NCBI RefSeq assembly: GCF_030013205.1
Contig: NZ_CP122648.1
Length of the DNA stretch: 64,000 nt
Direction: 5' to 3' (one strand)
Source: Escherichia coli
GTDB taxonomy: Bacteria; Pseudomonadota; Gammaproteobacteria; Enterobacterales; Enterobacteriaceae
In this document: in pieces, positions 3,809 to 51,718 of the stretch
Position numbering within the stretch: position 1 is the first letter of the stretch
How the letters are laid out: each line of letters starts with the position of its first letter
Notes under the pieces: generated by a model
The model's input: only the letters and a program-made list of their open reading frames with translations
Told to the model about the DNA's origin: nothing
Database searches by the model: none
Program-made: the position numbers and the translations under genes

Positions 3809-3899
3809 CTGTTCTCCAATGACTAGTCTAAAAACTAGTATTAAGACTATCACTTATTTAAGTGATACTGGTTGTCTGGAGATTCAGGGGGCCAGTCTA

Positions 3900-7651: not shown

Positions 7652-7683
7652 GCCGGATACGAATGGTTTTGTGTCGTATCCGG
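7652..7683 (+). terminator. Stem-loop (GCCGGATACG ... CGTATCCGG) just after the yicI stop; REP-like or terminator hairpin
   Basis: Perfect 9-10 bp inverted repeat 14 bp after the yicI TAA; no strong U-tract. Confidence 0.45.
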
Positions 7684-7932
7684 TAAATAATCTCACATCT
7701 GGTAATAAATATTTCTTCCATCGTATTTGCGAGCATGATCACGATTATTCATCACGAAAATGTGATCTGTGCCGAAAAATATCTATTAACCGCCCCGTTT
7801 TGTTTTATACATGTCCGGACTACGGACAGATTTTAGTATTGTTGTGAAATTATTCTGCTTTATATTTACCCTCAGAGATGGCAACTGAAGCTCTTCCACA
7901 TGGGGCTTCTTAATCTGTGATAAGGGTAAAAA

Positions 7933-9486: not shown

Positions 9487-9512
9487 TGTCAGAATTTTAT
9501 GAGGTATGACGA

Positions 9513-9983
9513 ATGGACATAACAAAAATCCTGAATACGAATCGCGTTATTTTAGATATGCAAGCGACGAATAAAGCGGAGGCGATTGAAGAATTAACTA
9601 ATCTTCTCAAAAAAGATGGTGCGATCGATTGTCGGGAAACCTTTATTAAAGATGTCTGGCAGCGCGAAGCGGAAGGCTCGACTGGTTTTGAAAATCATAT
9701 TGCGATCCCGCATGGTAAATCTTCTGCGGTAATTAATACCACGCTGGCTATCGGGCGTACCCGGCAGGATATTCCCTGGGAAACACTGGATGGCAGTAGC
9801 GTACGCTGTATTATTTTATTTGCGGTACGTCTTGAAGATCAAAATACCACTCATATCCGTTTACTTTCCCAGGTCGCGGGCGCGCTTGCAGATGATGACA
9901 TCATAGCGCAATTGCTGGTTGAGACGAGCCCGCAAAAAATCATTGATCTCTTTAGTCAGTATGCACAATCCGATGTCTACTAA
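9513..9983 (+). CDS. PTS EIIA component, fructose/mannitol (type 2) family, 156 aa
   Basis: ...GFENHIAIPHGKSSAV... conserved phospho-His region of EIIA-2 domains. Confidence 0.75.
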   Translation: MDITKILNTNRVILDMQATNKAEAIEELTNLLKKDGAIDCRETFIKDVWQREAEGSTGFENHIAIPHGKSSAVINTTLAIGRTRQDIPWETLDGSSVRCIILFAVRLEDQNTTHIRLLSQVAGALADDDIIAQLLVETSPQKIIDLFSQYAQSDVY

Positions 9984-10000
9984 ATAACAGGGAGTATCTC

Positions 10001-10315
10001 ATGAATATTGTCTGTGTTGCCGCCTGCACGGCGGGTATTGCTCACACCTATATTGCTCGTGAAAAGTTAATTAAAGGGGCAAAAGCACTGGGCCACACCA
10101 TTAAAGTTGAAACCCAGGGAACCATTGGTACAGAAAACGAATTGCAGGCGGCAGAGATCTCTGCTGCTGACGTCGTGATTCTTGCTGTGGATGTGAAAAT
10201 AAAAGGAGAAGAACGTTTTACCAATAAACGCATTGTGCGAGTAAAGACAGAGATCGTCATTAAATCGCCCGTTCAATTTCTTGAAAAGGTCGAAAAATCA
10301 CTGGGAAATAAATGA
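10001..10315 (+). CDS. PTS EIIB component, fructose-like family, 104 aa
   Basis: MNIVCVAACTAGIAHTYIAREKL...: N-terminal CxxCxxGIAHT phospho-Cys motif typical of fructose-type EIIB. Confidence 0.75.
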   Translation: MNIVCVAACTAGIAHTYIAREKLIKGAKALGHTIKVETQGTIGTENELQAAEISAADVVILAVDVKIKGEERFTNKRIVRVKTEIVIKSPVQFLEKVEKSLGNK

Positions 10316-10339
10316 TCCTTATACTGGAGGGATCTTAAT

Positions 10340-11431
10340 ATGAAAGAAAATAAAATTCCGGTTTCACAGGAAATTAAAAAACATTTATTAACCGGCATCT
10401 CGTGGATGATACCCCTTATTGTGGCCGCCGGGATATGTATTGCGTTGGGGCAAGTTCTTGGCGGTACAGATGTTGGTGAAAAAACAGGAACAATCCCGTG
10501 GATGCTTAATCAGATTGGCGGCTGGGGAATGGGGCTGATTGTGCCGCTGATTAGCGCGGCAATTGCCTATTCTATTGCCGATCGTCCCGGATTTGCCCCG
10601 GGCCTGATTGTCGGCTTTCTCTGTGGGCAAATCCATACCGGATTTATTGGCGGTATGTTGGGTGGTTTCCTGGTGGGCTACACCATTTTGCTACTTAAAC
10701 GCTATATTCGCCTGCCGCAGTCGATGCAAGGACTCATGCCAATCATGGTGTTGCCGGTATTAAGCACCATTATCGGTGGGCTGTTAATGATGACGCTGAT
10801 TGGTAAACCCATCGCCTGGTTACAAGAAGCACTGATTCATTTGCTCGAGTCGATGCAGGGCGGATCGCGCTTCCTGATGGGGGCCATACTTGGCGCGATG
10901 GCAACCTTCGATTTCGGTGGTCCGGTCAACAAAACCATGTCGCTGTTTTCCGATGGCTTGCTGGTCAGTGGCGTCTACGGACCAGAAGCCGTGAAATTTG
11001 TCGGCTCAATCATCCCTCCGTTTGGCATCACACTTTCGTTCTTACTGACACGCCATAAATACACCCGTGCGGAGCGCGAGGCGCTGAAAGCCGCGTTTCC
11101 GATGGGGATCTGCATGATCACTGAAGGAGTCATTCCGATCGCCGCGCGTGACCTGTTGCGAGTAGTGGGATCTTGTGTGGTGGCATCGGCGGTCGCGGGC
11201 GGCTTAATCATGGTGTGGGGCGTGGAGAGTCCGGTTCCACATGGCGGCATGTTTGTTGTGCCTCTGTTCACCCATCCTCTGCTGTTTTGCCTGGCGCTGG
11301 GTATAGGCACGGTGATTTGTGGCGTGATGCTTTCACTCTGGAAGAAACCGGTAACGGAACGCGACGAAGAGTTTGACGAACTGAGCGATCAAAAGCTGAA
11401 AGATGAAGAGATCACTTTCACCCTCGAATAA
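10340..11431 (+). CDS. PTS EIIC permease component, fructose-like family, 363 aa
   Basis: Polytopic membrane protein immediately downstream of EIIA/EIIB; Gly-rich TM helices typical of EIIC-Fru. Confidence 0.7.
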   Translation: MKENKIPVSQEIKKHLLTGISWMIPLIVAAGICIALGQVLGGTDVGEKTGTIPWMLNQIGGWGMGLIVPLISAAIAYSIADRPGFAPGLIVGFLCGQIHTGFIGGMLGGFLVGYTILLLKRYIRLPQSMQGLMPIMVLPVLSTIIGGLLMMTLIGKPIAWLQEALIHLLESMQGGSRFLMGAILGAMATFDFGGPVNKTMSLFSDGLLVSGVYGPEAVKFVGSIIPPFGITLSFLLTRHKYTRAEREALKAAFPMGICMITEGVIPIAARDLLRVVGSCVVASAVAGGLIMVWGVESPVPHGGMFVVPLFTHPLLFCLALGIGTVICGVMLSLWKKPVTERDEEFDELSDQKLKDEEITFTLE

Positions 11432-11442
11432 CCGGAGGCCCT

Positions 11443-12294
11443 ATGTTTGCCGATATGAAAAGTATGGTGATGAAAGCCTGGCATGAACATTACGCCTTGC
11501 TGGCGATCAACTGTATGAATCTGGAAAGTGCTCGCGCAGCTATCCGCGTGGCGGAGAAGAATCGCGCTCCGATCATTCTCAATCTCTATCAGGGGCATCT
11601 GGCGCATTTTCCTGCACCCGTCGCGGCGGCAGTGGTTAAAACGCTCGCGGAATCTGCCTCAGTACCGGTCACTCTGGCGCTTGATCATGGCAAAAATCCG
11701 GACTGTATTCGTCAGGCGTTTCGTGCTGGTTTCAGCGGATTAATGATTGATGCTTCTGCTTTTCCCCTGGAGGAAAACGTGCGCCAGACCAAGGCGGTGG
11801 TGGAACTCGCCGCCAGCGCGCAGCTCTGCGTTGAAGGCGAACTGGGCCATCTGGCAGATGCGCCGCGTTACGACCAGGCCGCCAATGCAGACATGATGAC
11901 GCAACCCACTGATGTGGAAGCGTTTATCGCGCAGACAGGCATTGATCTACTGGCCGTCTCGGTAGGCACGGCGCACGGCATGTACGCGCCTGGTGTTGTA
12001 CCTGCTATTGATTTTCAGCGTCTGGCGGAGATTTTCCACTGCTCGAGCGTGCCTCTGGCATTACATGGTGGTAGCGGTACGCCGTTCGATCAGCTCCAGC
12101 TCTGTACGACTCTGGGGGTAGCAAAAATCAACGTGGGGGCGGCCATTTTTGAACGGGGGAAATCCGCGCTCCTGCATACCCTCTGTCACGATATATCCAT
12201 TGAACTGGTGGACGCGCTGAAAGCTATGGAACTGGCCTTCGAAGAAGCGATTACACCGTATTTACAGGCGAGCGGCTCTATCGGCAAAGCCTGA
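11443..12294 (+). CDS. Class II ketose-bisphosphate aldolase (GatY/KbaY/FbaA family), 283 aa
   Basis: Contains LDHG, GTAHG and HGGSG motifs of class II zinc aldolases. Confidence 0.75.
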   Translation: MFADMKSMVMKAWHEHYALLAINCMNLESARAAIRVAEKNRAPIILNLYQGHLAHFPAPVAAAVVKTLAESASVPVTLALDHGKNPDCIRQAFRAGFSGLMIDASAFPLEENVRQTKAVVELAASAQLCVEGELGHLADAPRYDQAANADMMTQPTDVEAFIAQTGIDLLAVSVGTAHGMYAPGVVPAIDFQRLAEIFHCSSVPLALHGGSGTPFDQLQLCTTLGVAKINVGAAIFERGKSALLHTLCHDISIELVDALKAMELAFEEAITPYLQASGSIGKA

Positions 12295-12374
12295 TTCATT
12301 TTCTGTCATGGCCTTTATGCCAGTGCAATAACGCACCGGCAGGGCGGACTACACGCTGAAACTGGAGATTTAAC

Positions 12375-13235
12375 ATGTTAGTTTCGATGAAAGAATTACT
12401 GCAACCTACCCGCCAGCACGGCTTTGCCATTGGCGCATTTAATGTGGCGGATAACTGTTTCCTTCGCGCAGTCGTGGATGAAGCAGAAGCGACAAATACT
12501 CCGGCGATTATTGCCATCCATCCCAGCGAACATGATTTTGTGGGCGATGCCTTTTTCGCTCACGTTCGCGAAATTACCCAGCGTAGTCCGGTCCCGTTTG
12601 TACTGCACCTCGATCATGGTGCCTCTGTAGAGCATGTTTTGCGTGCGATTCGCTGCGGATTTACCTCAGTAATGATCGACGGTTCGCTGCTGCCGTATGA
12701 AGAAAACGTGGCGCTGACCGCAGAAGTGGTTCGCCTCGCTCACGCGGTTGGAGTGTCGGTTGAGGGTGAACTGGGAACCATCGGACAAACAGGAACGTCG
12801 GTAGAAGGTGGTGTTTCACAAGTGACCTACACAGATCCGGCGCAGGCCGCCGATTTTATTGCTCGTACAGGTGCCGACACTCTGGCTGTGGCGATTGGTA
12901 CAGCGCATGGCATCTATCCAAAAGGGATGCAGCCGAAGCTGCAAATGGACATTTTGCGCGACATTGCCGGACGTATTGATATTCCGCTGGTGCTACACGG
13001 TGGTTCGGCAAACCCGGACGCGGAGATTGCTGAATCAGTTACGCTCGGCGTCGGCAAAATCAATATCTCCAGCGATATGAAATACGCCTATTTCCAGAAA
13101 GTGCGTGAAATTCTCGCTAAAGAGAGCTGGTGGGACCCGAACGTCATCTATCCGGATGCGATTAACGCGGCGCGGGAAGTCATTCGCCACAAAATGAAAC
13201 TGTTCGGTTCGCTCGGTAAAGCATCACTGTACTAA
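12375..13235 (+). CDS. Class II ketose-bisphosphate aldolase paralogue (GatY/KbaY family), 286 aa
   Basis: LHLDHG, GELG, GTAHG, LHGGS motifs; second tandem paralogue. Confidence 0.75.
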   Translation: MLVSMKELLQPTRQHGFAIGAFNVADNCFLRAVVDEAEATNTPAIIAIHPSEHDFVGDAFFAHVREITQRSPVPFVLHLDHGASVEHVLRAIRCGFTSVMIDGSLLPYEENVALTAEVVRLAHAVGVSVEGELGTIGQTGTSVEGGVSQVTYTDPAQAADFIARTGADTLAVAIGTAHGIYPKGMQPKLQMDILRDIAGRIDIPLVLHGGSANPDAEIAESVTLGVGKINISSDMKYAYFQKVREILAKESWWDPNVIYPDAINAAREVIRHKMKLFGSLGKASLY

Positions 13236-13240
13236 GCCAG

Positions 13241-13264
13241 AAGGGCGGGGTGACCCGCCTTTTA
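13241..13264 (+). terminator. GC-rich hairpin plus T-run between aldolase 2 and the kinase (possible intra-operon attenuator or partial terminator)
   Basis: GGGCGGG-GTGA-CCCGCCT followed by TTTT, 6 bp after the aldolase stop. Confidence 0.4.
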
Positions 13265-13282
13265 CGCAACAAGGAACGAGAT

Positions 13283-14215
13283 ATGCACTATCTGGGGTTG
13301 GATATTGGTGGGACCAAAATCGCCGCCGTCGTCATGGATGCGCATGGCTGGGAGATTCGCCGTTACCGCTGCCCGACGCAAAAGTCGACATATCAACAAT
13401 TTGTCTCATGCGTTGTGGCGTTTATCGAGCAGATTAGGCGGGACGTTCAACGACCGATGCTGACAGGGATCGCCTTACCCGGCAGTATCTCGCCACTCAC
13501 TGGCCTGATTAAAAACGCGAATATTCAGGTGATTAACGGTCATGCGTTACAGGCTGATTTGCAGCAATTGCTTGGGCAACCGGTGGTGATAGCCAATGAT
13601 GGTAACTGTTTCGCGCTATCAGAAGCTTGCGACGGTGCCGGGCAAGATTATGACGTGGTATTTGGTATTACGCTTGGTACGGGCTGCGGCGGTGGCATTG
13701 CCATCAAGCAACGACCGTTTATAGGGGCCTGGGGAAATGCTGCCGAATGCGGTCATATCACGTTGCCAGGCTATACGGAGCAGGAAGATGGTCCATCAGT
13801 CAGTTGCTATTGCGGCAAACACAACTGCGTGGAGTCGTTTGTTTCCGGCAGCGGTTTTAGTGAACGCTATCAACAGATGACTGGTAACTTGCTCACTCCT
13901 GCGGCGATTGTCACCCTGGCACAACGTGGTGATGCTTGTGCCATGCAGCAGGTGGCACGTTTTCGCCAACAGCTTGCCCGCACGCTGGCAACCATCGTTA
14001 ACGTTGTTGACCCTGGCGTGATTGTGATCGGCGGCGGGCTTTCGAATGTGGAACTGCTTATCACCGCTCTGAACGCAGAAGTTGCTCCACTGGTTTTCAC
14101 CGATCAATTCACCACTCCCATTGTAAAAGCACAGCACGGCGACAGTAGCGGAATGCGTGGCGCTGCCTGGCTTGCTATGCGCAACGGAGAAGCCAATGAA
14201 ACGTTCACAAATTAA
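13283..14215 (+). CDS. ROK-family sugar kinase, ~310 aa
   Basis: MHYLGLDIGGTKIAAV... N-terminal ATP motif and CYCGKHNCVESF zinc-binding ROK signature; start moved to the ATG with AAGGAA Shine-Dalgarno rather than the upstream GTG of the track ORF. Confidence 0.75.
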   Translation: MHYLGLDIGGTKIAAVVMDAHGWEIRRYRCPTQKSTYQQFVSCVVAFIEQIRRDVQRPMLTGIALPGSISPLTGLIKNANIQVINGHALQADLQQLLGQPVVIANDGNCFALSEACDGAGQDYDVVFGITLGTGCGGGIAIKQRPFIGAWGNAAECGHITLPGYTEQEDGPSVSCYCGKHNCVESFVSGSGFSERYQQMTGNLLTPAAIVTLAQRGDACAMQQVARFRQQLARTLATIVNVVDPGVIVIGGGLSNVELLITALNAEVAPLVFTDQFTTPIVKAQHGDSSGMRGAAWLAMRNGEANETFTN

Positions 14216-14876
14216 TTATGTTATTGATAAAGCACATGCCATTGCGCAGACCTTCCGCGTTTGTTTGCCAGAGTTCGCCTATTTTACGGTGGATGACTGG
14301 CTGCAGCTGGAACGGGATAACTGGCAAGAAGTGGTCGACTTACAGCTCGGTTGGGATATCACCGATTTTGGTCGTGGTGATTTCAACCAAACGGGACTAA
14401 CACTGCTAACGATGCGCAACGGCGCGCTGGGGTCGGCGGCATATCCAAAACCGTATGCTGAGAAAATGTTGCAGATCCAACAAGATCAGCAGACTCCTTG
14501 GCATTTTCACACCCACAAAATGGAAGATATCCTCAATCGGGGCGGTGGAGACTTATGCATGCAGTTGGCCTGGGCCAACGAAGCCAATCTCTGTGATGAT
14601 CAACGAGTCATTACCGTGAGTGTTGATGGTCAGCGGCGTACCATGAAACCTGGTGAAACGCTGGTGCTAAAGCCGGGGCAGGGCATTTGCCTGCCGCCGC
14701 GTCTGTATCATCGCTTCTGGGCGGAAAAAGCGTTTGTTCTCGGCTGGGAAATTTCGATGGTAAATGATGACCAACATGATAACCATTTTCTTGAGCCGGG
14801 AGGACGTTTTCCGGCGATAGAAGAAGATGAACCGGTGAAATGGTTATTGTGTAGTGAGTATGCTGTTTTGCGGTAA
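14196..14876 (+). CDS. Cupin-fold sugar isomerase, D-lyxose/D-mannose isomerase-like, ~226 aa
   Basis: Size and His-rich segment (WHFHTHKMEDI) resemble cupin-type D-lyxose isomerases; start taken at the ATG preceded by GGAGA; overlaps the kinase stop. Family assignment is from memory. Confidence 0.5.
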   Translation: MKRSQINYVIDKAHAIAQTFRVCLPEFAYFTVDDWLQLERDNWQEVVDLQLGWDITDFGRGDFNQTGLTLLTMRNGALGSAAYPKPYAEKMLQIQQDQQTPWHFHTHKMEDILNRGGGDLCMQLAWANEANLCDDQRVITVSVDGQRRTMKPGETLVLKPGQGICLPPRLYHRFWAEKAFVLGWEISMVNDDQHDNHFLEPGGRFPAIEEDEPVKWLLCSEYAVLR

Positions 14877-14885
14877 TAGCGGGGA

Positions 14886-14909
14886 CGCTAACGTTGATAT
14901 CCGTTAGCG
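14886..14909. terminator. Palindromic hairpin (CGCTAACG-TTGATATC-CGTTAGCG) between convergent island operon and yicH
   Basis: Perfect 8-bp stems with an 8-nt loop in the 42-bp spacer; could act bidirectionally. Confidence 0.45.
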
Positions 14910-14918
14910 CCCGCGTAT

Positions 14919-19626: not shown

Positions 19627-20493
19627 ATGAAAAAGCGTCGGAAGGAACCGGAAACGCTACGTGAACACTGTCGCCATATTTTTGGTGACGAGCCGCCAGT
19701 GCTCTGTGTATGGGAAACGGAATTTGATTACGCAGATGCCGAACTCAAGGCGCTGGCGGCTAAAGAGTGGCAACAGATAGGCGAATGGGATTTGAGTGCT
19801 TACTATGTACTCAATCTCGTTTATAACGAACCGATGCAAATAGAGCTGTTTCGCTATCTGTTTCCGCTATGCCTGGCGCAATGGCATGAAACCGTTTTAG
19901 CTGGCGGTTATGGTGATCACTTCGAAGAATCCTTAATGAAGGCATTGCGTCGGCCCTATCTCTGGCAGGAGATGATGAATGCTTCCCAACGCCAGCAGGT
20001 ACGGCAATTTTTACTGGAAACCGCGTTGCAGCGTATGGATAACGAGCGTGGTTTCAATAATGTTCTTTGCTGGCTGGCGGTGTTCAATACTCTGGGCGGG
20101 GCCGCGCCGTTAATTCATTCTCTCTGGTCAAGCTGGTGGGTGCTGGATACGCCGGGAAAAGCGGTGTGTGCTATTCAGTATGCCGCGCATCTAATTTATC
20201 CCATAGAAGCCAATCCGTTATGGTCGCAAGAATGGTTAGGCTGGGGGCATCCATTAGGTCATAAAGATGGCTGGTCCTCTGAGAATCGCGCTTTTCTTCG
20301 CCAAATGTTAACACCTGAAATGATTGTGGCTGGCGTACAGGCAGCGGCTGAAATTCTGCGTGGTGAACCGGAAGGCGCAATGGCGGCGCGAATTGCGCAG
20401 GATGCGTATGAGGCAGTGGATATCATCACTATCCAGATTGAAGATTTACTGCGTGACTTGTCTTGTGATGAGTCTGGTCATGCGTTGGAGTAG
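19627..20493 (+). CDS. Hypothetical protein, 288 aa, no recognisable domain
   Basis: ATG 3 nt after the gltS stop; C-terminus overlaps the recG stop by 16 bp; E. coli-like codon usage; Trp-rich, no predicted TM segments. Confidence 0.6.
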   Translation: MKKRRKEPETLREHCRHIFGDEPPVLCVWETEFDYADAELKALAAKEWQQIGEWDLSAYYVLNLVYNEPMQIELFRYLFPLCLAQWHETVLAGGYGDHFEESLMKALRRPYLWQEMMNASQRQQVRQFLLETALQRMDNERGFNNVLCWLAVFNTLGGAAPLIHSLWSSWWVLDTPGKAVCAIQYAAHLIYPIEANPLWSQEWLGWGHPLGHKDGWSSENRAFLRQMLTPEMIVAGVQAAAEILRGEPEGAMAARIAQDAYEAVDIITIQIEDLLRDLSCDESGHALE

Positions 20494-31095: not shown

Positions 31096-31221
31096 AGACG
31101 TTCCTGTTTATAAAAGGAGAGGTGGAAGGATTATAGCCATCGATGCCTTGTCAGGATAGGAATAACCGCCGGAAGTCCGTATAATGCGCAGCCACATTTG
31201 TTTCAAGCCGGAGATTTCAAT

Positions 31222-31938
31222 ATGCGTCCAGCAGGCCGTAGCAATAATCAGGTGCGTCCCGTTACCCTGACTCGTAACTATACAAAACATGCAGAAGGCT
31301 CGGTGCTGGTCGAATTTGGCGATACCAAAGTATTGTGTACCGCCTCTATTGAAGAAGGCGTGCCGCGCTTCCTGAAAGGTCAGGGCCAGGGCTGGATCAC
31401 CGCAGAGTACGGCATGCTGCCACGTTCTACCCACACCCGTAACGCGCGTGAAGCGGCGAAAGGTAAGCAGGGTGGACGCACCATGGAAATCCAGCGTCTG
31501 ATCGCCCGTGCTCTTCGTGCGGCAGTAGATTTGAAAGCGCTGGGTGAGTTCACTATTACGCTGGACTGCGACGTGCTTCAGGCTGATGGTGGCACGCGTA
31601 CCGCTTCGATTACGGGTGCCTGCGTGGCGCTGGCAGATGCGCTACAGAAGCTGGTGGAAAACGGCAAGCTGAAAACCAACCCGATGAAAGGGATGGTAGC
31701 CGCAGTTTCTGTCGGGATTGTGAACGGCGAAGCGGTTTGCGATCTGGAATACGTTGAAGACTCTGCCGCTGAAACGGACATGAACGTGGTGATGACTGAA
31801 GACGGGCGCATCATTGAAGTGCAGGGGACGGCAGAAGGCGAGCCGTTCACCCATGAAGAGCTTCTCACCTTGTTGGCGCTGGCCCGAGGGGGAATCGAAT
31901 CCATTGTAGCGACGCAGAAGGCGGCGCTGGCAAACTGA
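31222..31938 (+). CDS. rph: Ribonuclease PH, intact 238 aa
   Basis: [46 protein letters not shown]... through ...[15 protein letters not shown]; full length, unlike the truncated MG1655 rph-1 allele. Confidence 0.93.
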
Positions 31939-31945
31939 TTTTTAA

Positions 31946-31971
31946 GGCGACTGATGAGTCGCCTTTTTTTT
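31946..31971 (+). terminator. pyrE attenuator (intrinsic terminator hairpin plus T-run) in the rph-pyrE spacer
   Basis: GGCGACT-GATG-AGTCGCC followed by TTTTTTTTT, ~35 bp upstream of the pyrE ATG. Confidence 0.85.
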
Positions 31972-32003
31972 GTCTGTAGAAAAGTAAGATGAGGAGCGAA
32001 GGC

Positions 32004-32652: not shown

Positions 32653-32676
32653 CGCCGGATGAAAAGTCATCCGGCG
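32653..32676. terminator. Hairpin (CGCCGGATGA-AAAG-TCATCCGGCG) between convergent pyrE and slmA
   Basis: 10-bp inverted repeat between the two stop codons. Confidence 0.6.
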
Positions 32677-39232: not shown

Positions 39233-39583
39233 AGTAAATAGCTGACTTATGGATGTGCTGGGGATTCTATGTATTTAGCTGTGGCTTTACCATTACTTTT
39301 CCCGTTTTTGACTTAAATAGCAATTTACCCGCCAATTCTTGCTGAACATCTATACTTTTTTTGTATTTTTATGCGATTCATTGATTTCTGCAGTACGTGC
39401 AGGAAGGAATCGCAGAGCAACAGTGAAAGAATATGGTTGCTAATGATTTTATTTGATTGATTTCTTTATTGAAAATCAACAATGTGCTTAAAAATCATTC
39501 GGGTCGGATTGCCGCGAAAGAAGTGATACACTAGCGCGTCAATATCAGTGCGGTATCAGTATTCAGGTAGCTGTTGAGCCTGG

Positions 39584-39595
39584 GGCGGTAGCGTG
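39584..39595 (+). promoter_or_regulatory. ops element (GGCGGTAGCGTG) within the JUMPstart leader of the waaQ operon; RfaH recruitment site
   Basis: Exact GGCGGTAGCGTG ~50 bp upstream of the waaQ start in the waaA-waaQ divergent region. Confidence 0.85.
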
Positions 39596-39644
39596 CTTTT
39601 TCTGCTTCACCTTAATCGGATAATCTCAACAAAAAGAGTTACTT

Positions 39645-40703
39645 GTGGATAAGCCATTTCGAAGAATTTTGCTCATTAAGATGCGTTTTCATGGGGATAT
39701 GTTATTAACTACTCCCGTCATTAGTTCGCTGAAAAAAAATTACCCTGACGCAAAAATCGATGTGCTGCTTTATCAGGACACCATCCCGATCCTGTCTGAA
39801 AATCCAGAGATTAACGCGCTCTACGGCATAAAAAATAAAAAAGCAAAAGCCTCAGAAAAAATTGCCAACTTTTTTCATCTCATCAAGGTATTACGTGCCA
39901 ATAAGTATGACCTTATCGTCAATCTTACCGATCAATGGATGGTTGCTATACTGGTTCGCTTATTAAATGCCCGTGTGAAAATTTCCCAGGATTATCATCA
40001 TCGGCAGTCTGCTTTTTGGCGTAATAGTTTCACTCATTTGGTGCCGTTGCAGGGTGGAAATGTGGTGGAAAGTAACTTATCCGTGCTGACGCCATTGGGA
40101 GTTGATTCGTTGGTGAAGCAGACAACCATGAGTTACCCGCCTGCAAGCTGGAAACGTATGCGTTGCGAACTTGATCACGCTGGTGTTGGACAAAATTATG
40201 TGGTTATCCAACCTACGGCGCGGCAAATCTTCAAATGCTGGGACAACGCCAAGTTTTCCGCTGTGATTGATGCCTTACATGCTCGTGGTTATGAAGTCGT
40301 TCTGACGTCCGGCCCAGATAAAGACGATCTGGTCTGCGTCAATAAAATTGCGCAGGGATGCCAGACGCCACCAGTAACGGCGCTGGCCGGAAAGGTGACC
40401 TTCCCGGAACTTGGTGCGTTAATCGATCATGCGCAGCTGTTTATTGGCGTTGATTCCGCACCGGCGCATATTGCCGCAGCAGTTAATACGCCGCTGATAT
40501 CGCTGTTTGGTGCGACAGACCATATTTTCTGGCGTCCCTGGTCAAATAACATGATTCAATTCTGGGCGGGAGATTACCGGGAAATGCCAACGCGCGATCA
40601 GCGTGACCGAAATGAGATGTATCTTTCGGTTATTCCGGCGGCAGATGTCATTGCTGCTGTCGATAAATTACTGCCCTCCTCCACGACAGGTACGTCGTTA
40701 TGA
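39645..40703 (+). CDS. waaQ: LPS heptosyltransferase III WaaQ (GT9), ~340-352 aa
   Basis: ...RILLIKMRFHGDMLLTTPVISSLKKNYPDAKIDVLLYQDT...; track ORF begins at a GTG; true start not resolved. Confidence 0.88.
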   Translation: MDKPFRRILLIKMRFHGDMLLTTPVISSLKKNYPDAKIDVLLYQDTIPILSENPEINALYGIKNKKAKASEKIANFFHLIKVLRANKYDLIVNLTDQWMVAILVRLLNARVKISQDYHHRQSAFWRNSFTHLVPLQGGNVVESNLSVLTPLGVDSLVKQTTMSYPPASWKRMRCELDHAGVGQNYVVIQPTARQIFKCWDNAKFSAVIDALHARGYEVVLTSGPDKDDLVCVNKIAQGCQTPPVTALAGKVTFPELGALIDHAQLFIGVDSAPAHIAAAVNTPLISLFGATDHIFWRPWSNNMIQFWAGDYREMPTRDQRDRNEMYLSVIPAADVIAAVDKLLPSSTTGTSL

Positions 40704-41824
40704 TCGTTGCTTTTTGTTTATATAAATATTTTCCCTTTGGCGGTTTGCAGCGCGATTTTATGCGTATTGCTCAGACAGTCGCCGCCCGAGGTCATCATGT
40801 TCGGGTTTATACCCAGTCGTGGGAAGGCGAATGTCCTGATGTATTTGAACTGATCAAAGTGCCGGTTAAATCGCATACCAATCACGGGCGCAATGCGGAG
40901 TATTTTGCCTGGGTGCAAAAACATTTACGCGAACATCCCGTCGATAAAGTCGTTGGATTCAACAAAATGCCGGGGCTGGACGTTTATTATGCCGCTGATG
41001 TTTGTTATGCCGAGAAAGTAGCGCAGGAAAAAGGCTTTTTCTATCGCCTGACGTCACGTTATCGCCATTATGCCGCCTTTGAGCGGGCAACCTTCGAACA
41101 GGGCAAGCCGACACAGCTGCTGATGCTGACAGATAAGCAAATCGCCGATTTCCAGAAACATTATCAGACTGAAGCGGAGCGTTTTCATATTCTGCCACCG
41201 GGGATTTATCCTGATCGTAAATATAGCCAGCAGCCAGCTAATAGCCGTGAAATCTTCCGTAAGAAGAATGGAATAACCGAACAACAATATTTATTGTTGC
41301 AGGTCGGTTCAGACTTCACGCGTAAAGGTGTCGATCGTTCCATTGAAGCACTTGCTTCGTTACCGGATTCGCTGCGCCACAACACATTGCTATATGTTGT
41401 TGGGCAGGATAAACCGCGAAAATTTGAGGCGCTGGCAGAAAAACGCGGCGTGCGCAGTAATGTTCACTTCTTCTCGGGGCGCAACGATGTCTCGGAATTA
41501 ATGGCGGCGGCGGATTTATTACTGCATCCTGCCTACCAGGAAGCGGCGGGAATTGTGCTGCTGGAAGCGATTACTGCAGGATTACCGGTACTAACAACAG
41601 CCGTTTGTGGCTATGCGCCTTATATTGTCGAGGCCAATTGCGGCGAGGCTATTGCTGAGCCATTCCGCCAGGAAACATTGAATGAGATTTTACGCAAAGC
41701 GTTAACGCAATTTTCATTGCGCCAGGCCTGGGCGGAAAATGCGCGACATTATGCTGATACACAAGATTTATACAGTCTGCCAGAGAAAGCGGCGGATATC
41801 ATAACGGGTGGTCTGGATGGTTGA
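40700..41824 (+). CDS. waaG: LPS glucosyltransferase I WaaG (GT4), 374 aa
   Basis: [43 protein letters not shown]... Confidence 0.93.
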
Positions 41825-42614
41825 ACTTAAAGAGCCGTTTGCCACGTTATGGCGCGGAAAAGATCCTTTTGAGGAAGTTAAAACTTTGCAGGGTGAGGTA
41901 TTTCGTGAACTGGAAACTCGCCGTACTCTGCGCTTTGAAATGGCGGGCAAAAGCTATTTTCTCAAATGGCATCGCGGCACGACCCTGAAAGAGATAATCA
42001 AAAATTTACTCTCATTGCGGATGCCAGTATTAGGCGCAGACCGCGAATGGAATGCGATTCATCGACTGCGGGATGTCGGCGTTGATACTATGTATGGGGT
42101 GGCATTTGGCGAAAAAGGCATGAATCCGCTTACCAGAACTTCATTTATTATTACCGAAGATCTGACACCAACCATAAGTCTGGAAGATTACTGTGCTGAC
42201 TGGGCGACTAACCCTCCAGATGTTCGCGTAAAGCGTATGCTTATTAAGCGTGTCGCGACGATGGTGCGCGATATGCATGCTGCGGGCATTAACCACCGTG
42301 ACTGTTATATCTGTCATTTCCTGCTGCACTTGCCTTTTTCCGGTAAGGAAGAGGAGTTAAAAATTTCGGTAATTGACCTGCACCGGGCGCAGCTTCGCAC
42401 GCGCGTTCCACGTCGTTGGCGCGATAAAGATCTTATAGGGCTTTATTTTTCTTCGATGAATATTGGCCTGACTCAGCGGGATATCTGGCGGTTTATGAAA
42501 GTGTATTTTGTCGCCCCGCTTAAAGACATTCTCAAGCAGGAACAAGGGCTGCTGTCGCAAGCAGAAGCAAAAGCCACAAAAATCAGGGAAAGAACGATTC
42601 GAAAATCGTTGTAA
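41817..42614 (+). CDS. waaP: LPS core heptose(I) kinase WaaP, 265 aa
   Basis: [54 protein letters not shown]... Confidence 0.93.
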
Positions 42615-42629
42615 TTTCCGGAGAGAAAT

Positions 42630-43646
42630 ATGAGTGCCCACTATTTTAATCCACAAGAGATGATCAATAAGACAATCATCTTCGATGAAAGGCCAGCGGC
42701 GTCAGTGGCATCATCATTCCATGTTGCTTATGGCATTGATAAAAACTTTCTTTTTGGTTGTGGTGTTTCAATCACGTCAGTTTTGTTACATAACAACGAC
42801 GTGAGTTTTGTTTTCCACGTTTTTATTGATGATATCCCTGAAGCCGATATCCAGCGTTTAGCCCAATTGGCGAAAAGCTATCGTACCTGTATCCAGATCC
42901 ATCTAGTAAATTGTGAACGGCTTAAGGCATTACCGACGACCAAAAATTGGTCTATTGCCATGTATTTCCGTTTTGTAATTGCAGATTACTTTATTGATCA
43001 ACAAGATAAGATCCTTTACCTGGATGCTGATATCGCCTGTCAGGGAAACTTAAAGCCGCTGATAACAATGGATCTTGCCAATAACGTTGCTGCTGTTGTT
43101 ACTGAACGCGATGCTAACTGGTGGTCGTTACGGGGTCAAAGTCTGCAGTGTAATGAACTTGAAAAGGGTTACTTTAATTCAGGTGTCCTGTTAATTAATA
43201 CACTAGCGTGGGCGCAGGAGTCCGTTTCTGCTAAAGCGATGTCGATGCTTGCTGATAAAGCCATCGTTTCCCGTTTAACCTATATGGATCAAGATATCCT
43301 TAATCTTATCCTGTTAGGGAAAATTAAATTCATTGATGCTAAATACAATACGCAATTTAGTTTAAATTATGAATTAAAAAAATCATTTGTTTGTCCAATT
43401 AATGATGAAACCGTATTAATTCATTATGTCGGCCCGACAAAACCCTGGCATTACTGGGCCGGTTATCCAAGTGCGCAACCTTTTATCAAAGCCAAAGAAG
43501 CATCGCCCTGGAAAAATGAACCGTTAATGCGGCCAGTTAACTCAAACTATGCTCGTTATTGCGCCAAGCATAATTTTAAACAAAATAAACCAATTAACGG
43601 GATAATGAATTATATTTATTATTTTTATTTAAAGATAATAAAATGA
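42630..43646 (+). CDS. waaO: GT8 outer-core alpha-glycosyltransferase, first after waaP (WaaO-like, Glc II transferase), 338 aa
   Basis: GT8 hallmarks YGIDKNFLFG, DxD region (LYLDADI) and TKPWHYWAGYPSA; positional equivalent of waaO. Confidence 0.6.
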   Translation: MSAHYFNPQEMINKTIIFDERPAASVASSFHVAYGIDKNFLFGCGVSITSVLLHNNDVSFVFHVFIDDIPEADIQRLAQLAKSYRTCIQIHLVNCERLKALPTTKNWSIAMYFRFVIADYFIDQQDKILYLDADIACQGNLKPLITMDLANNVAAVVTERDANWWSLRGQSLQCNELEKGYFNSGVLLINTLAWAQESVSAKAMSMLADKAIVSRLTYMDQDILNLILLGKIKFIDAKYNTQFSLNYELKKSFVCPINDETVLIHYVGPTKPWHYWAGYPSAQPFIKAKEASPWKNEPLMRPVNSNYARYCAKHNFKQNKPINGIMNYIYYFYLKIIK

Positions 43647-43662
43647 AATTGAGAAAAGTTAA

Positions 43663-44658
43663 ATGAATGAATTTATAAAAGAACGGTTTTCGTATTTAGC
43701 AGATAATAAAAAAGAAAACGCCCCAGAGCTAAATGTTTCCTACGGTATCGATAAGAATTTTTTGTATGGTGCTGGCGTTTCAATTTCTTCCGTTTTGATT
43801 AATAATTCAGATATTAATTTTGTCTTTCATGTTTTCACTGATTATGTGGATGATGATTATTTAAAGTCATTTAATGAAACAGCAAAACAATTTAATACCT
43901 CAATTATTGTATATTTAATTGACCCCAAATACTTTGCTGATCTGCCGACGTCACAGTTTTGGTCGTACGCGACATACTTCAGGGTATTGTCTTTTGAATA
44001 TCTGAGTGAAAGTATTTCCACACTGCTGTATCTGGATGCCGATGTTGTTTGTAAAGGAAGCCTGAAACCTCTCACAGAAATTATATTTAAAGATGAGTTT
44101 GCTGCGGTCATTCCTGACAATGATAGTACTCAGGCGGCATGTGCAAAACGCCTCAACATTCCCGAAATGAATGGACGTTATTTCAATGCAGGCGTTATCT
44201 ATGTCAATCTTAAAAAATGGCATGAAGCAAATTTGACACCGTATTTACTCAAACTTTTACGAGGGGAAACTAAATATGGCTCTCTTAAATATTTAGATCA
44301 GGATGCGTTGAATATCGCATTTAATATGAATAATATCTACCTTGCGAAGGATTTTGATACTATTTATACCCTGAAAAACGAACTTTATGATCGTAGTCAT
44401 CGAAAGTATCAGCAAACCATTACCGATAAAACAGTGTTGATTCACTATACAGGGATAACTAAACCATGGCATAGCTGGGCTGGATATCCGTCTGCATCAT
44501 ACTTTAATATCGCGCGTGAACAATCTCCCTGGAAGAAATATCCTCTTAAAGAGGCGCGGACTGTTGCAGAAATGCAGAAACAATATAAGCATCTGTTTGC
44601 CCATGGTGAGTATATTAAAGGCATAACTTCATTAATTAAGTACAAGCTTAAGAAATAA
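43663..44658 (+). CDS. waaT: GT8 outer-core alpha-glycosyltransferase, second paralogue (WaaT-like in R1/R4 nomenclature), 331 aa
   Basis: YGIDKNFLYGAG, LYLDADV, TKPWHSWAGYPSA; symbol assigned by gene order only. Confidence 0.5.
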   Translation: MNEFIKERFSYLADNKKENAPELNVSYGIDKNFLYGAGVSISSVLINNSDINFVFHVFTDYVDDDYLKSFNETAKQFNTSIIVYLIDPKYFADLPTSQFWSYATYFRVLSFEYLSESISTLLYLDADVVCKGSLKPLTEIIFKDEFAAVIPDNDSTQAACAKRLNIPEMNGRYFNAGVIYVNLKKWHEANLTPYLLKLLRGETKYGSLKYLDQDALNIAFNMNNIYLAKDFDTIYTLKNELYDRSHRKYQQTITDKTVLIHYTGITKPWHSWAGYPSASYFNIAREQSPWKKYPLKEARTVAEMQKQYKHLFAHGEYIKGITSLIKYKLKK

Positions 44659-44667
44659 ATTACTATT

Positions 44668-45360
44668 ATGATTACAAGTATACGCTATCGCGGCTTCTCA
44701 TTTTATTACAAAGATAATGATAATAAATATAAAGAAATCTTTGATGAAATACTGGCCTATAATTTTAAAACAGTAAAAGTATTACGTAATATTGATGATA
44801 CCAAAGTATCGTTGATTGATACGAAATATGGTCGCTATGTTTTTAAAGTCTTTGCCCCGAAAACGAAAAGGAATGAACGTTTTTTAAAATCTTTTGTAAA
44901 AGGTGACTACTATCAGAATTTGATCGTTGAAACCGATCGTGTCAGAAGTGCAGGTCTTACTTTTCCTAATGATTTTTATTTTCTGGCTGAGCGTAAAATT
45001 TTCAACTATGCCAGTGTTTTTATCATGCTTATCGAGTATGTCGAGGGCGTAGAGCTCAATGATATGCCGATTATTCCAGAAAATGTTAAAGCAGAAATTA
45101 AGGCTTCAATGGAAAAATTGCATGCCTTAAATATGCTATCGGGCGACCCACACCGGGGTAACTTTATCGTTAGTAAAGATGGTGTCAGGATAATTGACCT
45201 ATCCGGTAAAAGCTGTACGGCAGAGCGGAAAGCTCGTGATCGTCTGGCCATGGAACGTCACCTGGGTATTGCCAACGAAATAAAAGATTATGGCTACTAT
45301 TCAGTAATCTACAGAACCAAACTACGCAAATTTATTAAAAAATTAAAAGGCAAAGCGTAA
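44668..45360 (+). CDS. waaY: LPS core heptose(II) kinase WaaY, 230 aa
   Basis: Small kinase-like protein (…SGDPHRGNFIV…IDLSGK…) between outer-core glycosyltransferases, as in known waa clusters. Confidence 0.8.
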   Translation: MITSIRYRGFSFYYKDNDNKYKEIFDEILAYNFKTVKVLRNIDDTKVSLIDTKYGRYVFKVFAPKTKRNERFLKSFVKGDYYQNLIVETDRVRSAGLTFPNDFYFLAERKIFNYASVFIMLIEYVEGVELNDMPIIPENVKAEIKASMEKLHALNMLSGDPHRGNFIVSKDGVRIIDLSGKSCTAERKARDRLAMERHLGIANEIKDYGYYSVIYRTKLRKFIKKLKGKA

Positions 45361-45385
45361 ACCACACAGTCAAAACGGAACCAAC

Positions 45386-46414
45386 ATGGATTTATTAGCT
45401 GAGAGTATTACTGAAGTCGCTGTCTCTGGGGAAATTGCTAACACCGATCGTGTGTTAAATATCGCTTACGGTATTGACCGTAATTTTTTATTTGGTGCGG
45501 CCGTATCTATGCAATCAGTTGTTATGCATAACCCGGACCTTGCGGTTAAGTTTCATCTCTTTACCGACTACATTGATGAAGATTATCTACAACGTGTTAA
45601 CGCTTTTACCAGCAAAAATGCTAACGTTGAAGTAAGAATTTATAAAGTCTCCAGTGCCTTTATTGATATTTTCCCCAGCCTGAAACAGTGGTCTTATGCA
45701 ACATTCTTCCGTTTGGTTGCGTTCCAGTATCTGAGTGAAACTATTGAAAATCTGTTATATATCGATGCTGATGTCATCTGTAAAGGCTCATTAGCTGGAT
45801 TGCTTGATATTAATTTTGATGGCGATAAGTTCGCAGCTGTTATTAAAGATGTGCCTTTTATGCAGGAAAAACCAGCGAAGCGTCTGGCTATAGAGGGACT
45901 TCCAGGTAATTATTTCAACGCCGGTGTAGTATATCTGCAGCTTGAAGCATGGGCGAAAAATGATTTTATGAATAAAGCCATTGCTATGCTGGCAAGTGAC
46001 CCGCAGCATACGAAGTATAAATGCCTTGATCAGGATATTTTAAATATTCTGTTCTTTGGTCATTGTATTTTTATTAGCGGCGATTATGATTGCTTTTATG
46101 GCATTGACTATGAGTTAAAAAATAAAAGCGATGAAGATTATAAAAAGACCATTACCGATGATACTAAGCTGATTCATTATGTTGGCGTAACGAAGCCCTG
46201 GAACGACTGGACGAATTATCCCTGCCAGAAGTATTTTAATGAGGCTTATCAGGCTTCTTGCTGGAATGATGTGGCGTTTATTCCAGCCACGAATGAAAAG
46301 CAGTATCAAGTGAAATCCAGACATTTGAAAAGAAATGGTAAAATTGCATCTTCATTTTACTATTTCATGCTCTATTATAGTAAGAAAATAGCGCGTAAGC
46401 ATTTTTCCAAATAA
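45386..46414 (+). CDS. waaW: GT8 outer-core alpha-glycosyltransferase, third paralogue (WaaW-like), 342 aa
   Basis: YGIDRNFLFGAA, LYIDADV, TKPWNDWTNYP; symbol assigned by gene order only. Confidence 0.5.
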   Translation: MDLLAESITEVAVSGEIANTDRVLNIAYGIDRNFLFGAAVSMQSVVMHNPDLAVKFHLFTDYIDEDYLQRVNAFTSKNANVEVRIYKVSSAFIDIFPSLKQWSYATFFRLVAFQYLSETIENLLYIDADVICKGSLAGLLDINFDGDKFAAVIKDVPFMQEKPAKRLAIEGLPGNYFNAGVVYLQLEAWAKNDFMNKAIAMLASDPQHTKYKCLDQDILNILFFGHCIFISGDYDCFYGIDYELKNKSDEDYKKTITDDTKLIHYVGVTKPWNDWTNYPCQKYFNEAYQASCWNDVAFIPATNEKQYQVKSRHLKRNGKIASSFYYFMLYYSKKIARKHFSK

Positions 46415-46445
46415 TTATTAAGATTAATCATCCAGAGATTTTTTA

Positions 46446-47213
46446 ATGAACTTGCCCATTTATATTGTCTCACTTAAAAGAGATATTGAGCGAAGAAATA
46501 AAATAAATGATGTTTTTCATCGATTAAATATTAATTTTGATTTTTTTGATGCCATAGATGCTAAAGACCCTCAAAATAAAGAAATTATTGATAAAATGAG
46601 ATTAAGTGGTGTCGGCGCAGAAATGACTGATGGAGAAATTGCTTGTACATTAAGTCATCAGCTTATATATCAGGATATGATAGATAAAAATATAGAATGG
46701 GCAGTCATTCTCGAGGATGATGTTATCGTCAATGAGAAATTTAAAAAATTTCTGCAATATTTTAATCTTTCTGAAAAAGACAAGTTAAAACATAATAATT
46801 TGTATTTGCTTGGAGGACAGAAAGGATTACATGATTATCCGGTATTGGGGCAAAGCCTTTTTAGTAAAGTTAAGGTAAGTACTTGTACTTTTCGGCGTGT
46901 TAATTTCAATAAAAATAAAATTCGGCGTACATGTTCATATTTGATGAATAAAGATATGGCACAAAAGTTGCTCAAATTGACAAAGGATTATGGCACCTAT
47001 CGAGCTGATAGCTGGAAGTTAATGCATCAACATAATATTATAAAAGAGTTTTATTTAGACGAAATAATATTACATCCTATTTTAAATGAGTTTAATAGTC
47101 ATCTTGAAAGTGAAAGGCTATTAACATCGGAAAAAAAACAACCTAGAACAAGGCTTCAGAAAAGAATGAAGTTTATACGCTCCTGGATAAAGGTGGCTTT
47201 TTTTCTCTTTTGA
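46446..47213 (+). CDS. GT25-family LPS beta-glycosyltransferase (WaaV/WaaX-like; Lic2A/LgtB-like), 255 aa
   Basis: IYIVSLKRDIERR ... FFDAIDA ... TLSHQ ... ILEDDV motifs typical of GT25; cannot tell WaaV (R1) from WaaX (R4) by eye. Confidence 0.65.
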   Translation: MNLPIYIVSLKRDIERRNKINDVFHRLNINFDFFDAIDAKDPQNKEIIDKMRLSGVGAEMTDGEIACTLSHQLIYQDMIDKNIEWAVILEDDVIVNEKFKKFLQYFNLSEKDKLKHNNLYLLGGQKGLHDYPVLGQSLFSKVKVSTCTFRRVNFNKNKIRRTCSYLMNKDMAQKLLKLTKDYGTYRADSWKLMHQHNIIKEFYLDEIILHPILNEFNSHLESERLLTSEKKQPRTRLQKRMKFIRSWIKVAFFLF

Positions 47214-47252
47214 AATGAGATTGTTAATTTCAATTTGTTGTGAGATATTAAC

Positions 47253-48506
47253 GTGGAAGTAAAAATTGAGCAATTTCGAAATAATAGCTGTAATTTTATT
47301 TTTTTATTGTATTTAATCGGTTTGTTGTTTGTGCCAATTGATCTTAATATCACCACTAAAATAATTAATGCGACAGGTGCATTTTCTCTTTTCTTATTAA
47401 TTGTAAATAAAAAGCATAATTATAATAAAAATGTCATTATATTAATTCTTGGTTTACTTCTTTTGGGTGCAATGAACCTTATATGGTATGAATTTTATAA
47501 AACAGAAGATGTAGTATATAGAAATGCTTATCGAGGCTACCTTGAGTCTGGAAAACTATTAGTATTTAGCTCGTTGACATTTTTATTACTAAGTAAAAAT
47601 AAATTCAGGCAAAATGAAAAACTACATTTTATTTCAGCTATCTTAGTTCAAATAATCATGCTATGTAGAGCATATTATCAAGGGATATATTTGCATGCAG
47701 ACCGCATTCCCCTCTCCGCCATGAATGGGAATATTGGTCAGATGGGGGCAGCGACTATTGCGGCTTATGTGATTACATTTACAACTTTATATTCTTCAAT
47801 TGTATTCATAAAAATGCAATCGAAATATAAATGCTTTCTATTTTATGCTAACTTTGCTTTAAGCTTTGCAGCAGTAATGATGACAGGAACGCGTGCGGCA
47901 ATTTTCACATTCCCACTTATGATTATGGTCATATTATTTCTTCAGCATCGTGATCAAAAAGTGTTTTTATTTAAAGGATTGAGTGGTGTTTTTATATTGC
48001 TACTTGCTTGTGGTTTGATATTTAATAAGGAAATTGATAGGCGAATTAATTCATTAAAAGCTGATGTTATTTCATATGCTACAAAAAATAACAGTCAATC
48101 CTCGGTCGGAGCACGTTTTGCAATGGTTAATGCAGGAATTAAAGGAAGTCCTGATGGTTTTAATTGGCAATCTCTTGAGCAGCGTGCTGAAAAGATAAAA
48201 GCATTAAGTGCAGAAAATAATATTTATAGTGGAGCTTTATTATTCCTTGATGTACATATGCATAACGAAATTGTGGAATCTCTTTCCACGAAAGGAAAAA
48301 TTGGTCTTCTTGTTCTTATTATGTTCTATGTTGCAATGATCTATTACTGTATACGAGAGAAAAAATATATACTCTTGGTTTTCCCTGCTTCTATTATGTT
48401 ATTTGGCATTAGTGATGTCATTACACATGCTAAACCAATACCGGCATCGTGGATTGTGTGCCTCTTCCTGTCTATATCGTTTTTGAGTAAAAATGAACCA
48501 CAATAA
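47253..48506 (+). CDS. waaL: O-antigen ligase WaaL, ~417 aa, not the K-12 allele
   Basis: Polytopic membrane protein with a large periplasmic loop, last gene of the outer-core operon, convergent with waaC; track ORF starts at a GTG so the true start is uncertain. Confidence 0.8.
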   Translation: MEVKIEQFRNNSCNFIFLLYLIGLLFVPIDLNITTKIINATGAFSLFLLIVNKKHNYNKNVIILILGLLLLGAMNLIWYEFYKTEDVVYRNAYRGYLESGKLLVFSSLTFLLLSKNKFRQNEKLHFISAILVQIIMLCRAYYQGIYLHADRIPLSAMNGNIGQMGAATIAAYVITFTTLYSSIVFIKMQSKYKCFLFYANFALSFAAVMMTGTRAAIFTFPLMIMVILFLQHRDQKVFLFKGLSGVFILLLACGLIFNKEIDRRINSLKADVISYATKNNSQSSVGARFAMVNAGIKGSPDGFNWQSLEQRAEKIKALSAENNIYSGALLFLDVHMHNEIVESLSTKGKIGLLVLIMFYVAMIYYCIREKKYILLVFPASIMLFGISDVITHAKPIPASWIVCLFLSISFLSKNEPQ

Positions 48507-48553
48507 TAAAAGCGTTGACTAAGTAAGTGGGTATAATGCCCACTTACTATTTA

Positions 48554-49513
48554 TTAAATTAATGTGATTTTTTTATAAACAGCCGCTGCTTCTAAATTAT
48601 TTAAATTCATTAGCGGAGCCCTACAAACCACCTGATTCTTCCCATATCCGCCAATTAATCCCGGATCGGTTGGTCCATAAACCGTGATATTCGGTCTATC
48701 CAGTGCCGCCGTTAAATGGCTTAACCCCGTATCCACCGACACTACAAATTTAGCCCCGGCCAGTACGCGGGCAACGCCTTCCAGACTCATCTTCGGCAAT
48801 ACTTCAACATAAGCAAATCCTTCCGCCAGTCGTTTCGCCCGTTCTTCCTCATGCGGCGCGCCCCACGGAAGTTTAATCCGTATTCCTGAATCAGCCAGTA
48901 AACCAATCAATTCTCGCCAGTGTTCTTCCGGCCAGTGTTTATCATCACGGGTCGTCGCATGAAGAAATACGGCATATTCGCCAGCATCTGTAGGCAGGTT
49001 CGTCAGGAAATGTTGTGCGATAGCATAATCACCCTGGGTTTGCGGTTTGCTATAGCCCAAACTTTTGGCAAACAGTTCGCGGGTGCGTTCTACGGCGTGC
49101 TGCTGTTTTGCAATATGATGCTTACGATTGTAAAACAGGCTGGCTAACGGTTCTCGAACGGTTTGCCAGTCCATGCCATGCTTTACGCCATGCGCCAGAC
49201 GCGTCACCAGCGCCGCGCTTTTTACCAGCCCCTGAGCGTCGATAACTGCGTCATAGTTCTCTGCTTGTAGCGCTTCACGAAACGCTTTGCGTTCAGCTTT
49301 TATGGGGGCCGAGAACCAGGCTTTACGCCAGCGACGTATTGCCACAGGAATAACTCGCTCAACGGCGGCGTGCCAGGAAGGAATCTGTGCGAACCCTTCT
49401 TCCACCACCCAGTCAAACTTAATCCCTGGGATTGCCTGCTGGGCATCAGTGAGTGCGGGCAGCGTATGGAGAACATCGCCCATCGACGATGTTTTAACGA
49501 TCAAAACCCGCAT
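48554..49513 (-). CDS. waaC: LPS heptosyltransferase I WaaC, 319 aa
   Basis: MRVLIVKTSSMGDVLHTLPALTDAQQAIPGIKFDWVVEEGFAQIPSWH... Confidence 0.93.
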   Translation of the reverse strand: MRVLIVKTSSMGDVLHTLPALTDAQQAIPGIKFDWVVEEGFAQIPSWHAAVERVIPVAIRRWRKAWFSAPIKAERKAFREALQAENYDAVIDAQGLVKSAALVTRLAHGVKHGMDWQTVREPLASLFYNRKHHIAKQQHAVERTRELFAKSLGYSKPQTQGDYAIAQHFLTNLPTDAGEYAVFLHATTRDDKHWPEEHWRELIGLLADSGIRIKLPWGAPHEEERAKRLAEGFAYVEVLPKMSLEGVARVLAGAKFVVSVDTGLSHLTAALDRPNITVYGPTDPGLIGGYGKNQVVCRAPLMNLNNLEAAAVYKKITLI

Positions 49514-51505: not shown

Positions 51506-51718
51506 AACTGTAACCTTCGAATTATGGAGTCAGAGACAATCTCAGACACGAATGCTTCTATCATATCACTACACGGCGTTGGCTTCAGCCATTCGCCAAA
51601 AGTGAGATTGATGGACGTTATTTATCCTGAATTTTGCAGAAGTGTTAACGCGTCATCTCGTCGCGACCTATAAGTTTGGGTAATATGTGCTGGAATTTGC
51701 CCTGTCTGGAGAATCGCA

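Follow-up and report, generated by a model that had tools for sequence, protein, structure and literature searches.

The question raised by the rph-pyrE locus of the Escherichia coli strain studied here (assembly GCF_030013205.1) is whether it carries an intact gene for RNase PH in front of the pyrE attenuator, as the original prediction held, or the frameshifted gene known from laboratory K-12, and what the answer may tell about the background of the strain and the expression of its pyrE. RNase PH is a phosphorolytic 3'-5' exoribonuclease that matures the 3' ends of tRNAs. The K-12 allele rph-1 truncates this enzyme and lowers pyrE expression (PMC9997739; PMC5933015), and it is common to EMG2, MG1655 and W3110, while a K-12 strain without it, WG1, has been described as well (PMC9997739). 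In the following, the window denotes the whole stretch of DNA that was analysed, 64,000 nucleotides of contig NZ_CP122648.1, and the features of the locus are collected in Table 1. The answer we arrive at is that the locus is almost certainly a wild-type bicistronic rph-pyrE operon of the ordinary kind, in an E. coli that is not K-12.

The rph frame of the window comprises 717 nt and runs uninterrupted from its ATG at 31222 to a TGA at 31936-31938, as found both by direct reading and in the list of open reading frames; GGAG at 31211-31214 precedes the start codon, and position 32003, where the interval under study ends, is the last base before the ATG of pyrE. The NCBIfam RNase PH equivalog profile TIGR01966 matches the product with 380.8 bits (E = 1.9e-114) over profile positions 1-235 of 236, as compared with a curated cutoff of 141.5 bits, and residues 2-237 align with the structure of Pseudomonas aeruginosa RNase PH, 1r6l (E = 3.7e-104), so that chance can be excluded for the identity of rph. 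Further structure matches were obtained with 1oyp, 3b4t, 3dd6 and 1udn. Both the length of the product and its C-terminus are typical of Enterobacterales orthologs (238 aa), rph being of exactly this length in almost every one of some 100 species loci and having a C-terminus of the form ...GGIESIV.TQKAAL.N. Furthermore, the rph DNA is identical to rph of strain CFSAN061763, annotated as ribonuclease PH (WP_001247093.1). The frame, the full-length profile match and the alignment to 1r6l thus bear out the claim of an intact rph of 238 codons, and the gene, judged from its sequence, encodes a full-length RNase PH for which phosphorolytic activity is predicted.

Alignment with the rph region of MG1655 had been named beforehand as the test that could expose a frameshift towards the 3' end of the gene, and none was found. 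When 910 nt of the window were aligned to MG1655 (NC_000913.3), the sole indel was one extra G, the window reading CCCGAGGGGGAATCG and MG1655 CCCGAGGGGAATCG. The rph gene of MG1655 encodes 228 aa ending in ...ARGESNPL* and is annotated 'truncated RNase PH', which together with the alignment confirms the premise that MG1655 carries the 1-bp rph-1 frameshift. Deleting one G from the window gene in silico yields a product of the same length with the same ...ARGESNPL* ending, its tail identical to that of the MG1655 product, and it puts the TAG at 31907-31909, which precedes the normal stop by 29 nt, in frame. The gap between stop and hairpin differs correspondingly, the rph-1 TAG lying 34 nt upstream of the hairpin and the wild-type stop only 5 nt. 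With GGGGG at 31888-31892 rather than GGGG, the window falls outside the K-12 rph-1 allele class. The rph-1 locus of MG1655, W3110 and EMG2 has the same attenuator and flanking genes as the window, but differs from it in the run of four G, the frameshift, the 228-aa product and the stop codon placed 29 nt further upstream. Besides the 1-bp indel, rph differs from its MG1655 counterpart by 17 substitutions, 15 of them synonymous and two non-synonymous (A138, which is V in MG1655, and T216, which is I), and the predominance of synonymous changes indicates that the gene is probably under purifying selection.

Table 1. Features of the rph-pyrE locus, with positions in the window
Feature	Position	Strand	Basis
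yicC-rph intergenic region, putative rph-pyrE promoter/leader	31096..31221	+	126 nt, all identical to MG1655
rph, intact RNase PH, 238 codons + TGA	31222..31938	+	ORF list, TIGR01966, 1r6l, MG1655 comparison
G5 run, site of the K-12 rph-1 deletion (G4 in MG1655)	31888..31892	+	MG1655 alignment
TAG, premature stop in rph-1, out of frame here	31907..31909	+	simulated 1-G deletion
pyrE attenuator hairpin, 9-bp stem AAGGCGACT/AGTCGCCTT, loop GATG	31944..31965	+	terminator scan, folding
T8 tract of intrinsic terminator, first two T in stem base	31964..31971	+	scan and sequence
GAGGAG Shine-Dalgarno of pyrE, 7 nt before ATG	31991..31996	+	direct read; identical to MG1655
pyrE, orotate phosphoribosyltransferase, 213 codons + TAA	32004..32645	+	TIGR00336
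Hairpin between convergent pyrE and slmA, putative terminator	32653..32676	.	terminator scan

The attenuator is likewise in place. Between rph and pyrE the terminator scan found AAGGCGACT-GATG-AGTCGCCTT followed by TTTTTT, and this hairpin alone folds with -14.3 kcal/mol (z = -5.6), a stability reached by none of 200 shuffles, while an 81-nt context folds into the same structure. The hairpin starts 5 nt past the rph stop, which brings its 5' arm within ribosome-footprint distance. The 65-nt spacer that separates the rph stop from the pyrE ATG (32004) shows no difference from MG1655, and since this is also true of the entire 126-nt region upstream of rph, in which TATAAT is found at 31182-31187, the attenuator characterised experimentally in K-12 is present base for base. 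The canonical pyrE attenuator hairpin and T-tract that had been predicted are hence supported by scan, fold and identity to MG1655 alike. A search of the whole window with all Rfam families at gathering thresholds gave no match over the rph-pyrE spacer, Rfam being apparently without a model for this attenuator; the matches in the window were tRNA-Sec and JUMPstart only, both outside the spacer. The pyrE gene itself scores 240.8 bits against TIGR00336 (cutoff 106.8) and differs from that of MG1655 at 13 nt and in a single residue (S61, which is G in MG1655), and the hairpin that follows it was placed on the minus strand by the terminator scan, with 10 pairs, 7 of them G-C.

The closest known system is the wild-type (rph+) rph-pyrE operon of E. 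coli outside the W1485 lineage, with which the window shares the gene order (yicC on the opposite strand, rph and pyrE in tandem, slmA convergent), the 238-codon rph with its C-terminus, the 65-nt spacer, the hairpin, the T8 tract and the pyrE Shine-Dalgarno sequence, as well as an identical upstream intergenic region. The locus shows allelic variation only, with 17 substitutions (2 aa) in rph and 13 (1 aa) in pyrE relative to K-12.

The established model of translation-coupled attenuation for this operon is reportedly due to Bonekamp 1984, Andersen 1992 (Andersen, Poulsen and Jensen) and Jensen 1993. According to it, rph would serve pyrE as a leader frame in addition to encoding its enzyme, and a ribosome near the end of rph and close behind RNA polymerase would mask the hairpin's 5' arm, so that with the hairpin blocked transcription would continue into pyrE. 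When UTP is plentiful, the polymerase would instead outrun the ribosome, the hairpin would form and most transcripts would end before pyrE. In rph-1, where the ribosome would come off the mRNA 34 nt short of the stem, the terminator would form and pyrE would be under-expressed. The E. coli pyrBI leader attenuator follows the same logic and likewise relies on UTP-sensitive coupling of transcription and translation, a ribosome on an upstream frame blocking the terminator hairpin when low UTP slows the polymerase; the upstream frame of pyrBI is however a short dedicated leader peptide, whereas that of pyrE is the full-length enzyme gene rph.

Papers citing Bonekamp 1984 and Jensen 1993 state that transcription of pyrE starts at the rph promoters and that termination at the hairpin is set by how closely the rph-translating ribosome trails RNA polymerase, and these papers, PMC2784333 among them, treat UTP- and translation-dependent read-through as known for K-12. 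It should also be mentioned that MG1655 grown in minimal medium repeatedly gains an 82-bp deletion that places the stop codon beside the hairpin (PMC2784333; PMC5933015), and that moving the rph stop nearer to the attenuator restores growth (PMC2784333). Somewhat at odds with this, Conrad et al. (PMC2784333) found that up-regulation of pyrE was not clear in the expression data of strains with the 82-bp deletion. For the strain studied here, we infer ribosome occlusion, UTP dependence and growth phenotype from the K-12 literature and from the identity of the regulatory region. Since an intact rph lets its translation stop in the usual place, we expect normal expression and regulation of pyrE and none of the partial pyrimidine starvation known from rph-1 K-12. 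The 'translational coupling' of rph and pyrE in the original prediction stands in the sense that translation of rph is coupled to transcription at the attenuator, that is, as polarity control. It does not stand for the translation of pyrE, which is not what is coupled, as pyrE has its own Shine-Dalgarno sequence and starts 65 nt past the rph stop.

In the swine isolate EC571 (NZ_AP027436.1), whose rph region is 99.9% identical to the window, an IS200C element is found at 1136-1918, directly after the attenuator T tract (following TTTTTTTTGT) at approximately window position 31973. The element has TTGT on both flanks and puts about 0.7 kb between the attenuator and pyrE.

The sequence holds nothing that would contradict an ordinary operon. 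Some readings nevertheless depart from it. The ideas that the spot after the T tract is a recurrent insertion target rewiring pyrE in the porcine lineage, and that A138 and T216 give RNase PH altered properties, are very improbable to our minds, and neither bears on the window, whose rph-pyrE locus is simply the wild-type one. Also very improbable is the notion that the hairpin is a mere terminator of rph, pyrE being transcribed from its own promoter with no coupling to rph translation. This notion draws on the fact that intrinsic terminators often sit just past stop codons, and since they are common in that place at ordinary gene ends, the adjacency of terminator and stop codon does not by itself prove regulatory coupling; the hairpin and the T8 tract furthermore resemble a strong terminator. 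A simple sigma-70 consensus scan of low sensitivity revealed a promoter neither ahead of rph nor in the stretch from the hairpin to pyrE, a result that leaves room for a pyrE-proximal promoter, although the lack of a sigma-70-like site in the roughly 30 nt available after the hairpin counts, within the limits of so insensitive a scan, against one. Further objections are that in published K-12 genetics pyrE expression is governed by where the rph stop lies (PMC9997739, PMC5933015, PMC2784333), that the spacer of the window is identical to that of K-12, and that the arrangement is conserved between species.

This conservation was seen in a survey in which one genome per GTDB species was scanned for the conserved N-terminus of pyrE and the sequence upstream was analysed, giving 104 Enterobacterales loci with enough upstream sequence. 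An rph reading frame lies upstream of pyrE in 103 of the 104, and a hairpin with T tract is present in 102 of these 103 rph-pyrE loci. The stem starts 2-9 nt past the rph stop in all but one of the 102, most often after 4-5 nt, whereas anything from 57 to 191 nt separates the rph stop and the pyrE ATG in these loci, and it is this retention of both the gene order and the narrow gap (101/102) despite variable spacers that speaks against a plain terminator. Covariation was counted on a MAFFT alignment of 40 distinct segments reaching from the stop to the tail. Within the stem 94.4% of alignment cells are paired, which is if anything an underestimate, as MAFFT mis-registered a few hairpins with 3-nt loops, and changes on both sides are found at 4 of the 9 stem pairs, the loop-closing pair occurring as U-A, G-C and C-G. 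The observed covariation was reached by none of 500 shuffles, and controls with slid partners were all lower. Because the stop-to-hairpin gap is kept, the distance to pyrE is variable and the stem changes are compensatory, the constraint bears on the hairpin and on how close it stands to the rph stop, and not on the spacing to pyrE. Such a constraint fits what the coupling model predicts, and attenuation of pyrE coupled to the translation of rph is accordingly the reading we adhere to.

How far the intact allele can inform on the background of the strain depends on its frequency, which was counted by searching 5,426 complete E. coli genomes with 61 nt of MG1655 that have the deletion at their centre. 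The exact K-12 rph-1 61-mer was found in 168 of them, and all other sampled matches to the query span 62 nt, that is, the G5 state, which by this exact-allele count is present together with an intact rph in roughly 97% of complete genomes. Even TOP10, a K-12 derivative, has five G with K-12 flanks. We can conclude that an intact rph is what E. coli normally has and that it rules out no more than the MG1655/W3110/EMG2 lineage, and with about 97% of genomes in the G5 state and some K-12 strains rph+, it is weak evidence on background. The non-MG1655 background inferred at the outset from intact rph was correct, but the allele itself is only weakly diagnostic, as TOP10 and WG1 are rph+ too.

A non-K-12 background is better shown by the 17 rph substitutions, by differences in gene content and by an extended identity to porcine strains. 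The window keeps synteny with MG1655 at 3,780-3,838 kb with 94.6-98% identity, broken by several insertions and by a waa core locus that differs. A 1-kb region around rph is 100% identical to strain CFSAN061763, an independent complete genome, and window positions 20000-44999 (25 kb) match porcine isolates of ETEC and of O139:H1 (edema-disease type) at 100% identity. This 25-kb identity holds for at least 12 independently assembled swine isolates, and an identity of at least 99% to the stretch is found in only 41 of the 5,426 complete E. coli genomes. On the strength of these identities and of the divergence from MG1655, the window can be assigned with good reason to a natural, swine-associated E. 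coli lineage and not to K-12.

The same comparisons speak to the suspicion that the intact frame is an assembly or homopolymer artefact in a strain that is truly frameshifted. Such a suspicion arises from the site being a G5 homopolymer, and from two Enterobacterales assemblies, those of Kluyvera genomosp. 3 YDC799 and Leclercia adecarboxylata NCTC13032, in which rph frameshifts resemble long-read homopolymer errors, in Kluyvera at the very same run. However, the 1-kb region is identical in an independent complete genome and the 25-kb stretch in at least 12 swine isolates, the flanks of the site within rph carry the 17 non-K-12 substitutions, and G5 is the state of some 97% of complete E. coli genomes. 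With so many independent assemblies identical, we reject an assembly error in the G5 run, and a hidden frameshift is hardly credible.

As to the two assemblies just mentioned, each has several frameshifts in rph. The Kluyvera gene has four G at the run that is deleted in rph-1 and ends with the same ...ARGESNPL* tail, and we considered whether it might represent an independent recurrence of rph-1; it is probably artefactual, as a second frameshift is found near the 5' end of the same gene. The occurrence of multiple frameshifts within one gene suggests that in both assemblies these are long-read homopolymer errors and not real alleles.

It is equally hard to believe that rph, although in frame and with normal attenuation of pyrE, encodes an enzyme impaired by A138 and T216, the two non-synonymous differences from K-12, given that the same DNA is annotated ribonuclease PH (WP_001247093.1) in two other genomes, that the product scores far above the TIGR01966 cutoff over its full length, that P. 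aeruginosa RNase PH has alanine-type or variable residues in these aligned regions, and that 15 of the 17 substitutions are synonymous.

Several other differences from MG1655 were observed in the window. A 1.3-kb insertion on the minus strand at 2580-3853 lies between selC and yicJ, adjoined by the tRNA-Sec gene selC at 2209-2299, and contains overlapping reading frames of 136 and 301 aa, which by eye we take to be orfA/orfB of an IS2-type IS3-family element. Between yicI and yicH a 7.2-kb insert absent from MG1655 (7661-14918) carries genes for a PRD/Mga-type regulator, PTS EIIA, EIIB and EIIC, a ROK kinase and a D-lyxose isomerase in addition to two genes of the class-II fructose-bisphosphate-aldolase family, and it looks like an accessory sugar-utilisation island. 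A further insertion of 860 bp between gltS and recG, likewise absent from MG1655, holds a reading frame of 288 aa on the plus strand (19627-20493), for which no Pfam or NCBIfam match was found. In the region 39557-48615 a JUMPstart element (39557-39595) is found upstream of the waaQ operon, and the LPS core (waa) genes at about 42510-48615 differ from the K-12 type; in order and all on the plus strand, they comprise two GT8-like glycosyltransferase genes, waaY, a GT8-like gene and reading frames of 255 and 417 aa. Finally, approximately 1.28 kb of MG1655 containing htrL is replaced by about 60 bp at 51554-51615, and htrL appears to be absent from the window.

An intact rph-pyrE locus is an already known feature, and as it is the default of E. 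coli, no open question is advanced by finding it here. The locus matters only as a strain marker, setting the strain apart from the MG1655/W3110/EMG2 laboratory lineage, and the species survey confirms the classic coupling model on a small comparative scale and is no discovery. For the biology of the strain, the wild-type operon implies that RNase PH activity should be normal and pyrE normally regulated, as is the default in E. coli.
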